Source: a virus. From it: a stretch of DNA of 64,000 nucleotides. The position numbers were made by a program, and so were the translations under genes. The stretch's first letter is position 1, and every line of letters begins with the position of its first letter. The stretch covers positions 50,870 to 114,869 of IMG/VR virus record IMGVR_UViG_3300047462_000400. One strand, written 5' to 3'. The notes under the pieces were generated by a model that saw nothing but the letters and a program-made list of their open reading frames with translations, did not search any database and had not been told where the DNA came from. This document shows positions 25,622-59,029 of this stretch, one piece after another.

Positions 25622-25866
25622 GATGCGGAAGGGGTGTTGTCGTCGTCGGGTTCCACCGTCTCAACCTCGGCGGCGGCAGTGGCTGCGACGGCAGGCGCCT
25701 TCGACGACGAGAGAATGGAGCCGGTGACGAGGCCGAGCCCCGCCGTCACGACCGACGCGATGAGCGACGGGACGGGGTGCCCGGTGAGGGTGAGCGTGAG
25801 GTCGACGCCGAGCGCAACGACGATGAGCGCGGCGCCGAGCAGCTTGCTATTCACGAGCGCGCTCAT
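25618..25866 (-). CDS. Two-TM membrane protein (holin-like or virion membrane protein)
   Basis: Two hydrophobic helices, acidic tail. Confidence 0.65.
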   Translation of the reverse strand: MSALVNSKLLGAALIVVALGVDLTLTLTGHPVPSLIASVVTAGLGLVTGSILSSSKAPAVAATAAAEVETVEPDDDNTPSAS

Positions 25867-26096
25867 CACGCTCCCTCGGCGGAGCGGTCGATGCCCCACT
25901 TGGTGACGAACGCCACGCCGGAGCCAGCGAGGATGGAGCCCCAGAGCGGCCCCTTGAACGTGTAGACGAGCAGGCCCGCGGTGGCGCCAGCCATCACCGC
26001 GGCGAAGGCGGGAGATGCGCCCGGCGAGCTCACGCCACCGGAGGCGCCCAGCGCGAACCCCTGAACCGGTCGACCGCCGAAAGAGATCGTCTCCAT
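25866..26096 (-). CDS. 76-aa membrane protein with GGRPVQGFALG leader
   Basis: GAGGAG RBS, ATG 26096; two short hydrophobic helices. Confidence 0.75.
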   Translation of the reverse strand: METISFGGRPVQGFALGASGGVSSPGASPAFAAVMAGATAGLLVYTFKGPLWGSILAGSGVAFVTKWGIDRSAEGA

Positions 26097-26107
26097 CCTG
26101 ATACTCC

Positions 26108-27118
26108 TCACTGCATCACTGCGGGTTGGTGTGCGGGCTGCTTCAGCGGTGGCGCGTCGGTACGCCATTCCGCCATCCTCGAGTACGCGGCCCGGAACGC
26201 TGAGTCGTTGCCGAGCAAGCGCTCCGAACACGCGAGCTCCGCCCATGCGCGCCAGGTGTGCGCGGAGATGTCGACGAAGATGGAGTCCGTACAGGGTGGC
26301 AGTTCCGTCGCGTGCTTGGCGAGGTCGCGCGCGCCGGCGACGTCCCCCGCCTCGCGCAAGAGCTTTGCGTGCTCGACGTACGGCTCGGCGCGGGTAGGGC
26401 GCATCGCTCGCGCACGGGCATAGGCGGCCGATACCTCCGCGGACGGTCGCCCAAGCTTCACGATGAGTCGCGCAGCCTCGAGCGCCGCGCAGAACGCCTC
26501 CTCCCCCTCGTGCTTCATGGCGATCCGCTGCTCGAAGAGCTCGAGGGCGCGCACAAGCTCCCCCATCTGCCCGTACGTGAGGGCCAGGTAGAAGATCGAT
26601 CGCGGGTCCTCGCCGCCCTCGAGCAGCGCTGCGTTCCGGCGCGCCGTCGCCACCCGGTCCTTTGGCGGCGTACGCATGTAGTTGACGTGCGGGACGTGCG
26701 GCGCCCCGTCGTACGGGATGTACTCGTGACACTTCTGGACGTACCGGAGATGCGGCTTGAAGAGCCGGATGAATCCCCAGGCCGCGCCCTCGCACACCGT
26801 GATGACCGAGTGCGCTTCGCCGCTGTCCGGCCATCCGCTGAAGGCTGGGCCGAACGCATACACGTCGTCGGCGTCGAGCTGGAGCGCCCATTCCGCGCGG
26901 ACATGGGCCAGCGCTTCGTTCCGCGCGCTCGCGAAGTCCCGGAACGGTCCCCCGCGCACCACGCGCGCGCCGGCTGCGCGAGCGGCCTCGCCGGTCTCCT
27001 CGTCGCTCTCCGCGTTCAGGACGACGACGACGCTATCGACCTGCGCCGACACGCTCGCGATGGCAGCGCCGATGGTGCCCGCGTTGTCCCTCGCGATGAG
27101 CACGCATTCGACTGCCAT
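26108..27118 (-). CDS. GT2 glycosyltransferase with C-terminal TPR-like region
   Basis: LIARDNAGTI, DFASARNEAL, LDADD (DxD), TPR-like helices. Confidence 0.9.
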   Translation of the reverse strand: MAVECVLIARDNAGTIGAAIASVSAQVDSVVVVLNAESDEETGEAARAAGARVVRGGPFRDFASARNEALAHVRAEWALQLDADDVYAFGPAFSGWPDSGEAHSVITVCEGAAWGFIRLFKPHLRYVQKCHEYIPYDGAPHVPHVNYMRTPPKDRVATARRNAALLEGGEDPRSIFYLALTYGQMGELVRALELFEQRIAMKHEGEEAFCAALEAARLIVKLGRPSAEVSAAYARARAMRPTRAEPYVEHAKLLREAGDVAGARDLAKHATELPPCTDSIFVDISAHTWRAWAELACSERLLGNDSAFRAAYSRMAEWRTDAPPLKQPAHQPAVMQ

Positions 27119-27121
27119 GGA

Positions 27122-56241: not shown

Positions 56242-56242
56242 C

Positions 56243-57886
56243 TCAGTTCTCGATGATGATGAAGCCGGGGTTGAGGCCATCTAGCTGGATGGTCCCCTGG
56301 CCGTTCTCCGCCTGGAGGCGCGCGCGCACGAACACGGTCTGGCCGATGGTGAGGCCGGTGGCGACGATCTTGTTGACCGCTTGGAGCGTGAACGTCGTCC
56401 CTTGGTAGACCGTGCCGTTCGTTCCGAAGGTAGCGGTGAGCTGGGCATTGCCCATCGAGCTCACGCGCGAATAGCTGTCGGTCGGCAGCCAGTTCACGTC
56501 GTCGAACGAATACTCAAGGTAAAAGAGGATGGGCGAGAGCGTCCCGAGGAAGGGAGGCGAACCGGTCAGGGTGACCGTAGCCAAACCGTTGAACCAGGCC
56601 GTCAAGGTTGCGGTCGTGGACGTGGGGGTGAATGTCGTGTTCCCCATCGGCCAGCTCGCGGTGGGTACGGTGACCGAACCGCCCTGCCCCACGAGCGGGA
56701 ACGAGATGCGCTGAACCGCTGCACCACCCGCGGCAGGACCCGTGGGTCCCGTCGACCCGGAACCGGTGGGACCAGTCGCGCCGGTGGGACCAGTCGATCC
56801 GGCGGAGCCTGCACCAGTGGGTCCCGTCTTTCCCGTGGGTCCGGTCACGCCGGTCGAACCGGTCGGCCCCGTCGACCCGGTGCTCCCCGTGGGACCTGTC
56901 CCCCCCGTAGATCCCGTCGTTCCGGTTGCGCCTGTTGCGCCCATGGGACCAGTTGGGCCGGTCGAACCCGTCGACCCGGTGGGGCCTGTCACGCCAGTAG
57001 CGCCCGTACTCCCCGTGGAGCCGGTTGGGCCGGTCGACCCGGTGGGTCCGGTAGCTCCCGTGTCCCCCGTGGGTCCTGTCGATCCTGTCGAACCCGTGGA
57101 ACCGGTGTCCCCCGTCGCACCCGTGGGGCCTGTTGCACCTGTCGAAGCAGCTCCCGTTGCTCCCGTGGACCCAGTGTCTCCCGTCGCACCCGTGGGACCC
57201 GTACTGCCCGTGTTCCCAGTGGAGCCCGTTGCACCTGTTGCGCCGGTGGAACCAGTTGCTCCAGTTGCACCTGTTGCACCTGTTGCACCCGTGTCTCCTG
57301 TCGACCCGGTGGGACCGACTGCACCCGTCGAACCCGTCGAGCCGGTTGCTCCCGTTGCTCCGGTGCTCCCGGTCGGACCCATGCTCCCCGTGGGACCGGT
57401 CGATCCCGTTGGTCCGGTGTTCCCCGTCGAGCCGGTCGATCCGGTTGCACCCGTGGCTCCCGTTGGACCCGTAGCTCCGGTGGAACCCGTGTCCCCAGTA
57501 GGACCGGTGCTCCCGGTCGCACCCGTTGACCCCGTTGACCCAGTGCTTCCGGTGCTTCCCGTCGGACCGGTGAAACCAGTGGAACCAGTCGTCCCCGTCG
57601 CTCCCGTCGGACCGGTCGCTCCAGTTAGACCCGTACCGCCCGTGGGACCGGTCGCACCCGTCGCGCTCGCGGAGCCGGCGGGACCCGTCGAGCCAGTCGT
57701 GCCCGTGGGACCCGTCGAGCCAGTCGTACCGGTCGGCCCGGTGAACGTGGTCACGCCACCTGTCGGGCCAGCGCTCCCGGTCGGGCCGGTCGGTCCCGTG
57801 CTCCCGGTGACCCCGCTCGCGCTCGCGGTAGACGAAGTCGGATACGTCTCCGCTGCGTACCTGCCCCGACCGATGATGCGGCTCAC
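56243..57886 (-). CDS. Long collagen-like spike candidate with beta head
   Basis: [16 protein letters not shown]; G-X-T tract. Confidence 0.9.
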
Positions 57887-57926
57887 GACTCCGAATGTAT
57901 CAGCTCATCAGAGCAGACACTACGGG

Positions 57927-58532
57927 TCACCGGCGCCACGACCAGAGCGTTGCCACCGTCCCTCCGATAGCGGCCCCGATCAACGCAGGCTTCCAGGGGA
58001 ATGACGGAGGCGGACAACCGGGACACGGCGGCGGCAAGTCTGGGCAGGGCGGGTACGTCGGGCAGTCCGGGCAGCCTGCTTGTGCAGGAGGCGGCACGTC
58101 TGGCGTCTTCTGCGGGTCGCCAGGACCGCACGGGTGGTAGCCGTCGTCGACCTGCTGCGCGGAGAAGACGTACGAGATGTCCGCAGTCCCGCAGAGCGAC
58201 TTCACGAAGCCCATGTCGATGAGGCACTTCTCGATGTGCCGCACGATAGTCTTCGGCATGTCGCCGCCGTACTTGAGCTCAAAGTACATCCACGTCCGAC
58301 CGTTCGCCGGCGGCGGGAGACTCGCGAGCCAGTTGCCCATCAAGGATGGCGGCACCGGCTGCCCGCTCTGCCACGAAGCGGTGACCTGAAAGTCCTGCTT
58401 CTTCAGTGCATCGACGACCTTGTCCATCGACGCGACCTTGTCGACGGCGAGAAGCGCTGCGTACTGCCCCCCCGGCGATGCCAGGTAGTTGTTCTTCTGG
58501 TCCGGGTTGATGGGGAGCCAGCAGCTCTTCAT
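57927..58532 (-). CDS. Tail-anchored protein with Pro/Cys stalk
   Basis: ATGA coupling; [12 protein letters not shown]...WRR. Confidence 0.78.
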
Positions 58533-59029
58533 CGTCCTGCCGCCTGCACACCCAAGACGAACATGCCTGCAACCGTTGCAGCGGCGACCGCCGTCACCGC
58601 GACGAGCTTCCAGTCGGTCCGCTCGGGCGGCGGCGTGCTGGACACGGAGTAGAGAGCGAGCGACGGATCGGGACGTGCAGTCGCGGGGTCGAGCGGCATT
58701 GCGTCCGCGAGTCGACCGCTCGCCGCCGCCGGCTGGGGCAACCGGTAGAGCGTGACGCCGGGGATGCAAAGCCCCGTGAGGAGTTGGCCGCCGCGATAGG
58801 TCCAAGTGTGGTGGTCTTTGCGCGCGAGGACGTCCTGCCCGTGCCAGCGCATCGTCCACTCTTGTCCGTACGGCCAGTCCTTGATGTTGTCGCGGAGCGC
58901 CATCGCCCACTGCACGAGCGCTGGCGGCACCGCACCCTTCCAGATCACGTAGCCGGCGCGCGGAGGAGGATTGTTCGGACACGGAGCATCCGCGAACCCC
59001 ACCACCGGATGGCCGCCATAGCAGATCAT
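58529..59029 (-). CDS. Tail-anchored protein with GGHPVVGF leader, paralog of 50572-51009
   Basis: C-terminal TM. Confidence 0.8.
   Translation of the reverse strand: MICYGGHPVVGFADAPCPNNPPPRAGYVIWKGAVPPALVQWAMALRDNIKDWPYGQEWTMRWHGQDVLARKDHHTWTYRGGQLLTGLCIPGVTLYRLPQPAAASGRLADAMPLDPATARPDPSLALYSVSSTPPPERTDWKLVAVTAVAAATVAGMFVLGVQAAGR

Follow-up and report, generated by a model that had tools for sequence, protein, structure and literature searches.

Proteins sharing an N-terminal tag

The window in this study is a stretch of 64,000 nucleotides with a G+C content of 67% (positions 50,870 to 114,869 of the IMG/VR virus record IMGVR_UViG_3300047462_000400). It belongs to a single virus record of 116,275 bp (G000). 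Five small proteins encoded in the window begin with variants of one short peptide, which we call the tag, and the proteins that bear it are called carriers. An earlier sequence-only reading of the window had described this peptide as a recurrent leader on membrane-anchored proteins and had proposed a sorting or propeptide signal for recruitment to the virion membrane. All five of the N-termini that it quoted were found in their places by a six-frame scan. The carriers, in window coordinates and with lengths in amino acids (aa), were as follows:

Carrier 1, 25866..26096, minus strand: 76 aa; tag METISFGGRPVQGFALG at residues 1-17, then Gly/Ala-rich hydrophobic segments.
Carrier 2, 51964..52590, plus strand: 208 aa; short form of the tag, MIRFGGRPVPGFALG; C-terminal transmembrane segment and basic tail.
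Carrier 3, 52565..53077, plus strand: 170 aa; tag METIYRGGRPVAGFNVG; C-terminal transmembrane segment, then RKKP.
Carrier 4, 54748..55056, minus strand: 102 aa; tag (M)MNESIMLGGRAVQGFGVG; glycine-zipper-like hydrophobic body.
Carrier 5, 58529..59029, minus strand: 166 aa; tag MICYGGHPVVGFAD, which is a GGHPVVGF variant; C-terminal transmembrane segment.

The pattern GG[RH][PA]VxGF occurred five times in the six frames of the 116,275-bp record and not once in any of 30 shuffles. In all five strict copies, an ATG lay three to seven codons upstream, which places the motif at the start of a protein, and the bodies behind it were small with a hydrophobic C-terminus. After removal of the tag, the five carriers formed separate BLAST clusters, in line with the claim that they are otherwise unrelated, and none of them matched a Pfam family. 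The accompanying claim that all of them have a transmembrane segment stood for four of the five, in which a Kyte-Doolittle 19-mer of at least 1.6 was found near the C-terminus; the 76-aa protein reached 1.54 in a Gly/Ala-rich stretch.

Conservation of the tag in related viruses

Relatives of the virus were collected with one protein of its capsid module:

Candidate major capsid protein, 39624..40907, minus strand: 427 aa; very conserved; query used to find relatives.

This search returned 30 related uncultured viral contigs, mostly of 80-125 kb and several of them rated complete, and nine relatives were taken as whole sequences for comparison. The structural half of the genome was shared among relatives whose replication halves were almost wholly different. 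The core genes found in all relatives encode three beta-rich proteins, a 795-aa Arg-rich protein, a LysM protein with an anchor and an Arg tail, a RadC/JAB protein, and a 220-aa transglutaminase-like protein. No cultured phage was matched when the capsid candidate, the transglutaminase-like enzyme and a 202-aa protein of the capsid module were searched with tblastn, or when 20 kb was searched with megablast. In public metagenomes, the 427-aa protein was represented by at least 419 clusters (90% identity) on contigs of up to 159 kb, none of them from a cultured phage. Nearly all of these clusters were 70-80% identical to the 427-aa protein, a conservation far above that of the adjoining genes.

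The consensus of 37 distinct aligned copies of the tag was (M)E-x-[IVL]-x-x-G-G-R-P-[VA]-x-G-F-[AG]-[LV]-G, with a length of 17 residues. The second Gly of the Gly-Gly pair was invariant and the later Gly-Phe nearly so, and the first Gly was replaced by Asn or Ala in some copies. The pattern is hairpin-like, with alternating hydrophobic residues, a turn at Gly-Gly and a second strand, and in most carriers the tag is followed by a stretch rich in Pro, Gly and Asp. A hidden Markov model built from the clear copies gave about 45 matches above 14 bits in six whole genomes and 25 loci, and the best score in reversed open reading frames (ORFs) was 9.9 bits. Such a search over related contigs had been proposed in the sequence-only reading, and it showed the motif to be conserved in orthologues. 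At the conserved residues, synonymous codons were used freely: Gly was encoded by GGC, GGT, GGA and GGG, Arg by CGA, AGG, CGC and AGA, and Val by all four of its codons. This indicates that the peptide, rather than the DNA or RNA, is under selection.

When the tag was stripped, the carriers of the relatives formed at least seven orthologous groups with unrelated bodies. Each group kept its tag across genomes, so that loss of the motif in orthologues, which would have spoken against a functional peptide, was not what was found; modules were shuffled between genomes. More than 25 independent genes had the tag at the very start of their product, with Met three to seven residues ahead of Gly-Gly. 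The orthologue of carrier 1 in relative G001 retains the tag, the orthologous group of carrier 3 has members in G001, G002, G003 and G005, and carrier 4 is similar to a group of 96-100 aa in the relatives. The GGHPVVGF variant of carrier 5 is borne by a different protein in relatives L004 and G009. Four consecutive carrier genes form a cassette in G001-G004. In six genomes, the carriers all lay within about 22 kb of the capsid gene. The number of copies was one or two in G008 and G009, two relatives with about 60% G+C, and reached about eight per genome elsewhere. A phyletic profile of all genes against the presence of the motif singled out no partner, the genomes being too few.

A profile of the 30 N-terminal residues was compared with 1.84 billion protein representatives at E <= 0.001. 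There were 35 matches. Two were giant repeat proteins, and most of the other 33 were proteins of 51-257 aa with the motif at residue 1 and a hydrophobic body. Independent gene calls began at the tag in 31 of these 33, and no cellular protein family was apparent among the 35 matches. The peptide had been called virus-specific, and in this search nearly all matches were indeed small proteins with the motif at residue 1; an occurrence at background frequency in unrelated proteins was not what it showed. As judged from these sequences, the motif is restricted to this virus clade. One match that was looked up lay on a contig of 90 kb that shares its RadC, peptidoglycan-binding and ParB genes with this virus. 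A word-indexed search with residues 1-40 of one carrier returned the query alone, its index being too coarse for a motif of 17 residues.

The link between the tag and a membrane anchor was also seen in these database carriers. A hydrophobic C-terminal segment was present in 23 of the 33, compared with 24 of the 158 genes called in this genome, a background that includes the carriers themselves (Fisher p = 1e-9). In nearly all carriers, the hydrophobic stretch is close to the C-terminus and is followed by Arg or Lys, and a few end in an amphipathic helix with a basic tail. The membrane topology is a prediction from hydrophobic 19-mers, which were found near the C-terminus and never at the N-terminus. 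Several carriers have paired cysteines in their N-terminal domains. Some carriers of 51-67 aa consist merely of the tag, a linker and the transmembrane segment.

One further tag-bearing protein was observed on a related 90-kb contig (L096:10434-11335). It has 124 aa and no clear anchor, and its gene lies directly upstream of a nucleotidyltransferase/HepT-like toxin-antitoxin pair.

Copies of the tag inside a 762-aa ORF and in a modular protein

Copies of the tag also occur within a long ORF directly downstream of the capsid genes:

762-aa ORF, 35790..38078, minus strand: His/Pro-rich repeats, PG_binding_1 domain, C-terminal transmembrane segment and Arg-rich tail.

Two degenerate copies had been reported in this ORF. 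Both are present, at 37913 and 36449, and a third had been missed, ARDVFGGRDVAGFPLD at 37094. All three are in frame and sited at module boundaries. The His/Pro-rich tandem repeats are units of about 45 aa (HPHHPGHPQHPHH...GREVVVQPGQ) at 37240-37840 on the minus strand of the window, corresponding to residues 81-280, and the G+C content at third codon positions is lower in this repeat region than in the rest of the ORF.

In front of the copy at 36449, the sequence AAGGAG-N6-ATG (36456-36473, with the ATG at 36458) lies in frame, three codons ahead of the tag. It is plausible from this arrangement that a nested product of 222 aa, beginning with the tag, is made from the ATG at 36458; cleavage of a longer precursor is the alternative. 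In several relatives, an ATG lies one to three codons ahead of the corresponding tag, and gene callers start proteins there. In almost every relative, the gene that immediately follows the capsid genes ends in this module, which is made up of the tag, a peptidoglycan-binding-like domain, a linker, a transmembrane segment and a tail rich in Arg.

A second protein of the window has a degenerate tag only:

Orthologue of the 'NG-type' carrier of the relatives, 51012..51830, plus strand: 272 aa; amphipathic C-terminus and basic tail; degenerate tag METLIKEGRGSTLVAGGG at about 51051-51104.

The order of modules in NG-type proteins varies, as the window protein and the one at L048:9477-10070 in a relative illustrate. 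In G002 and G003, a domain of about 70 aa comes after the tag, and then a degenerate tag and the rest of the protein. The domain of about 70 aa is missing in G001, and in the window protein at 51012-51830 it comes after a Gly-rich module.

Capsid module and particle type

The capsid module of the window includes, besides the 427-aa protein, a smaller jelly-roll protein:

Single jelly-roll protein, 38930..39538, minus strand: 202 aa; capsid module; candidate docking partner of the tag, together with the 427-aa protein.

The predicted fold of the 202-aa protein was an eight-stranded single jelly roll, with a pLDDT (predicted local distance difference test) of 81. Its five best Foldseek matches include capsid chains of HHIV-2 and SPV1, which are internal-membrane viruses, and then of HCIV-1 and SH1. 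The Foldseek probability was 0.96-1.0, with TM scores of only 0.36-0.41. With a second aligner, the Z scores against those capsid chains were 6.4-7.0, and unrelated jelly rolls scored alike. The jelly-roll fold is therefore supported, and a specific kinship to those capsid proteins is not. The sphaerolipovirus type of capsid, with two vertical single jelly-roll proteins and an internal membrane, is a candidate model for this particle. For the 427-aa protein, a profile search against the sequences of the PDB gave no match; protein-language-model features point to single jelly-roll coat proteins, which we take only as a lead.

Among the larger ORFs scanned, no Pfam or PHROG match to a terminase, a portal or an HK97 capsid protein was found. 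The classical Walker A motif was seen only in a helicase, and no packaging ATPase, for instance of the FtsK/HerA type, was recognised by it; one with a deviant motif may be present. The predicted fold of the 202-aa protein, its Foldseek matches and the lack of any terminase or portal match make a jelly-roll particle plausible, possibly one that contains a membrane. The virus is apparently tailless.

Transglutaminase-like enzyme of the capsid operon

The capsid operon also encodes a possible peptidase:

Transglutaminase-like enzyme, 43695..44357, minus strand: 220 aa; core gene of the capsid operon in all relatives; Cys111, His145 and Asp161.

PF01841 was matched by eight of eight homologues (best E-value 9e-7), the window copy scoring 20.4 bits, under the cut-off of 23. 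Cys111, His145 and Asp161 were invariant in 45 sequences. About 400 relatives of the enzyme were found in metagenomes, many of them labelled as putative cysteine protease. A profile of the enzyme searched against the PDB sequences gave only chance matches to designed coiled coils. No peptidase of clan CE (Ulp1-like) was seen among the ORFs scanned; the conserved cysteine enzyme is of the PF01841 type. The enzyme would be a candidate protease for processing of the tag. Co-folding of the enzyme (alignment of 45 rows) with the tag (alignment of 37 rows) scored 0.00, an outcome of 'no answer' that bears neither way on binding.

In relative G008 (L086:10901-12529), an intein-like insert of about 840 bp interrupts the gene of the enzyme precisely at the catalytic Cys. 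On the upstream side, the gene piece ends with GGDC, followed by FPEGTLL, and the downstream piece resumes after HDVTVSN with CDEAA. By these junctions, the insert looks like an intein in the active site.

Comparison with known leaders and targeting sequences

In the sequence-only reading, a Sec, Tat or lipoprotein signal had been ruled out for the tag. This agrees with the 37 aligned N-termini, in which there was no hydrophobic core, no twin-arginine consensus and no lipobox cysteine. Two further classes of leader were considered and rejected. Double-glycine bacteriocin leaders (LSxxELxxIxGG) contain a Glu, an aliphatic residue and Gly-Gly, and are cut by a papain-like C39 peptidase; they have 15-30 residues, with Ile or Leu at -4 and Glu at -8. 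In the tag, three to seven residues precede Gly-Gly, the aliphatic residue is at -5 and Glu at -7, and nine residues past Gly-Gly are conserved. No C39-ABC exporter was seen in this virus. Type IV prepilin leaders are cut at Gly-Phe, and a run of about 20 hydrophobic residues comes next, in which Glu is at +5. Gly-Phe is present in the tag, but most carriers continue with a polar or Pro-rich stretch and the residue at +5 varies.

In phage T4, the capsid targeting sequence (CTS) is found on the internal proteins IPI-III, and its partner is the scaffolding core; it is removed by the prohead protease gp21, which cuts after Glu. Apart from this sequence, nothing is conserved among the diverse internal proteins, which the sequence directs into the assembling particle (PMC3012670). 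The tag resembles it in being a short N-terminal peptide that is the sole common part of otherwise diverse proteins of one virus. However, T4 is a tailed phage of the HK97 type with soluble carriers, whereas the carriers described here are membrane-anchored putative particle proteins in a jelly-roll context.

In vaccinia virus, the N-terminus of A17 binds the base cavity of the jelly-roll scaffold protein D13. This tail docks the lattice on the viral membrane, and it is later cut beside a pair of small residues by the viral cysteine protease I7 (PMC13672803; PMC3169552). The likeness lies in membrane-anchored carriers with a predicted free N-terminal tail, in a capsid module that encodes a predicted jelly-roll protein, and in a conserved enzyme with Cys, His and Asp. 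The present virus differs in infecting bacteria, in having many carriers with one tag instead of one protein, and in an enzyme that is transglutaminase-like rather than Ulp1-like, and there is no sequence similarity between the two systems.

Encapsulin cargo-loading peptides are likewise short and rich in Gly and aliphatic residues. They are joined to unrelated cargo by a flexible linker and bind a pocket on the inner face of the shell. Unlike the tag, these peptides are usually C-terminal, serve soluble cargo and an HK97-fold shell, and have a different sequence. LapG is a calcium-dependent cellular enzyme of the periplasm with a transglutaminase-like fold, and it cuts a membrane-associated protein near the N-terminus at Ala-Ala; the enzyme of this virus, by contrast, matches only the general PF01841 model. 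Overall, the tag behaves like known virion-targeting tags, and what is new is its sequence, its membrane-protein carriers and the undescribed tailless virus clade in which it occurs.

Possible role of the tag

Tentatively, we read the tag as a signal that incorporates membrane-anchored virion proteins into the particle or docks them there, and that may be trimmed at Gly-Gly. The tag would be a clade-specific, modular N-terminal address, probably a short beta-hairpin with a flexible linker, and would bind many unrelated membrane-anchored proteins to one common viral partner during assembly of the particle. The likeliest partner would be the jelly-roll capsid lattice, on its inner face, or a factor that takes part in assembling that lattice. 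The C-terminal transmembrane segment would anchor the carrier in the lipid layer with its basic tail towards the DNA, and the tag would rivet the carrier and its variable middle domain, such as a peptidoglycan-binding domain, to the shell. As an optional addition, the transglutaminase-like cysteine enzyme encoded in the capsid operon may later trim the tag at Gly-Gly.

Docking to a common viral partner probably fits the data better than the membrane sorting that was proposed earlier. Sorting to the membrane is probably not the job of the tag itself, because the C-terminal anchor is already able to do so. The minimal carriers made of a tag, a linker and a transmembrane segment suit a rivet better than a cargo or an enzyme. 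Docking is also supported by the location of carriers near the capsid gene, by the fusion of one carrier module to the gene just downstream of the capsid genes, and by the jelly-roll context together with the precedents of the T4 CTS and vaccinia A17. The N-terminal position, the selection on the peptide, the occurrence on several unrelated families, the stretch rich in Pro, Gly and Asp and the association with hydrophobic segments also count in favour of this reading.

Several points weigh against this reading. The two most distant relatives (G006 and G007, with a capsid protein about 45% identical) keep the same capsid operon and have no copy of the tag, which means that the tag is not essential to this capsid type; nothing convincing as another common tag was seen in these two, where the sole repeated N-terminus was an internal repeat of one ORF. 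The copies inside the ORF at 35790-38078 show that a position at residue 1 is not obligatory for the tag, unless these copies become N-termini through nested starts or cleavage. The fold of the 427-aa candidate was not obtained (alignment of 15 relatives, pLDDT 31), and hence no docking site was placed. The place of the carriers in the particle is what we infer, and the virion membrane is hypothetical. By the positive-inside rule, a transmembrane segment with basic residues behind it would leave the N-terminal domains on the outer side of the cell membrane, an orientation that suits a role in the host membrane as well as one in the virion.

A bolder form of the docking model takes the tag, the jelly-roll proteins and the transglutaminase-like enzyme together as the bacterial-virus counterpart of the poxvirus A17-D13-I7 system, or of an adenovirus-type one. 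Through the hairpin that they share at the N-terminus, a set of membrane proteins would attach the lattice to an internal membrane, and cleavage at Gly-Gly would release or lock these proteins at maturation. We regard this full scheme as rather unlikely. If true, a proteolytic maturation code would have been described for the first time in a prokaryotic jelly-roll virus, here in a widespread, undescribed clade of soil viruses of 110-125 kb.

The alternative that survives best is that the tag is purely a signal for maturation cleavage at or next to Gly-Gly and has no docking function. The protease would be the transglutaminase-like enzyme or the RadC/JAB protein, and the copies in the ORF at 35790-38078 would be cut sites of a polyprotein. 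The invariant second Gly with small residues around it suits such a site, and eukaryotic jelly-roll viruses are cleaved at GG-X or AG-X. A Cys-His-Asp enzyme stands in the capsid operon of every relative, the intein-like insert at its catalytic Cys in G008 suggests an important active site, and the in-frame copies of the tag lie at module boundaries. However, about nine residues past Gly-Gly are conserved as strongly as those before it, the piece released would have merely four to eight residues, and the first Gly may be Asn or Ala. The enzyme is also kept in G006 and G007, which have no motif, and the ribosome-binding site and ATG of the copy at 36449, like the ATGs before the tag in relatives, mean that nested starts can replace cleavage. 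We consider a role in cleavage without docking possible but unlikely.

The tag could instead be a novel topogenic or export signal that moves the N-terminal domain across the host cytoplasmic membrane without Sec or Tat. In that case, the host envelope would be where the carriers act, for example in lysis, wall remodelling or the exclusion of other viruses. The N-out orientation predicted from the basic residues after the transmembrane segment agrees with this, as do the peptidoglycan-binding-like domain after one tag, the paired cysteines in several N-terminal domains and the lack of a signal peptide in the carriers. On the other hand, the tag is neither hydrophobic nor amphipathic-helical. 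Among the matches from the 1.84 billion representatives, no cellular protein family was apparent, so that a machinery of the host that recognises the tag is not known. A translocase encoded by the virus was not seen either, and the carriers are grouped with structural genes. We find this explanation rather doubtful.

It is quite improbable that the tags bind each other, their beta-hairpins building a shared hetero-oligomer in one membrane complex for DNA delivery or lysis. The hairpin-like pattern and the conserved cassette of four carrier genes in relatives would suit such a complex, but no test result supports it and the copy number ranges from one or two to about eight per genome.

A common 5' element for the transcription or translation of leaderless mRNAs, with no role for the peptide, is hardly credible: a promoter-like TAGACG-N17-TACGCT does lie 7 nt before the ATG of two cassette genes (L043, L048, L059/L060 and L064, which are G001-G004), but it is confined to two orthologous groups, the motif also occurs deep inside an ORF, and the many synonymous codons at conserved residues, including CGA versus AGG or AGA for Arg, contradict such an element. 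The position of TAGACG-N17-TACGCT suggests leaderless transcripts for two of the four cassette genes. A similar element is present in the window at about 50567.

The tag is a handle, obtained without culture, on probable membrane-associated particle proteins in a large uncultured clade. If it is a docking or maturation signal, it would reveal the means by which the shell of a large tailless bacterial virus is tied to a membrane, and would extend the logic of the T4 internal proteins and of poxvirus A17/D13 to prokaryotic jelly-roll viruses. It would then also serve as a portable peptide with which foreign proteins could be loaded into such particles.

Another shared N-terminal peptide was observed in the window. 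At 29430-30876 on the minus strand, three tandem paralogues begin with MSKIAG(I/L)KG.SPE.Y, and the virus thus uses at least two classes of N-terminal tag.

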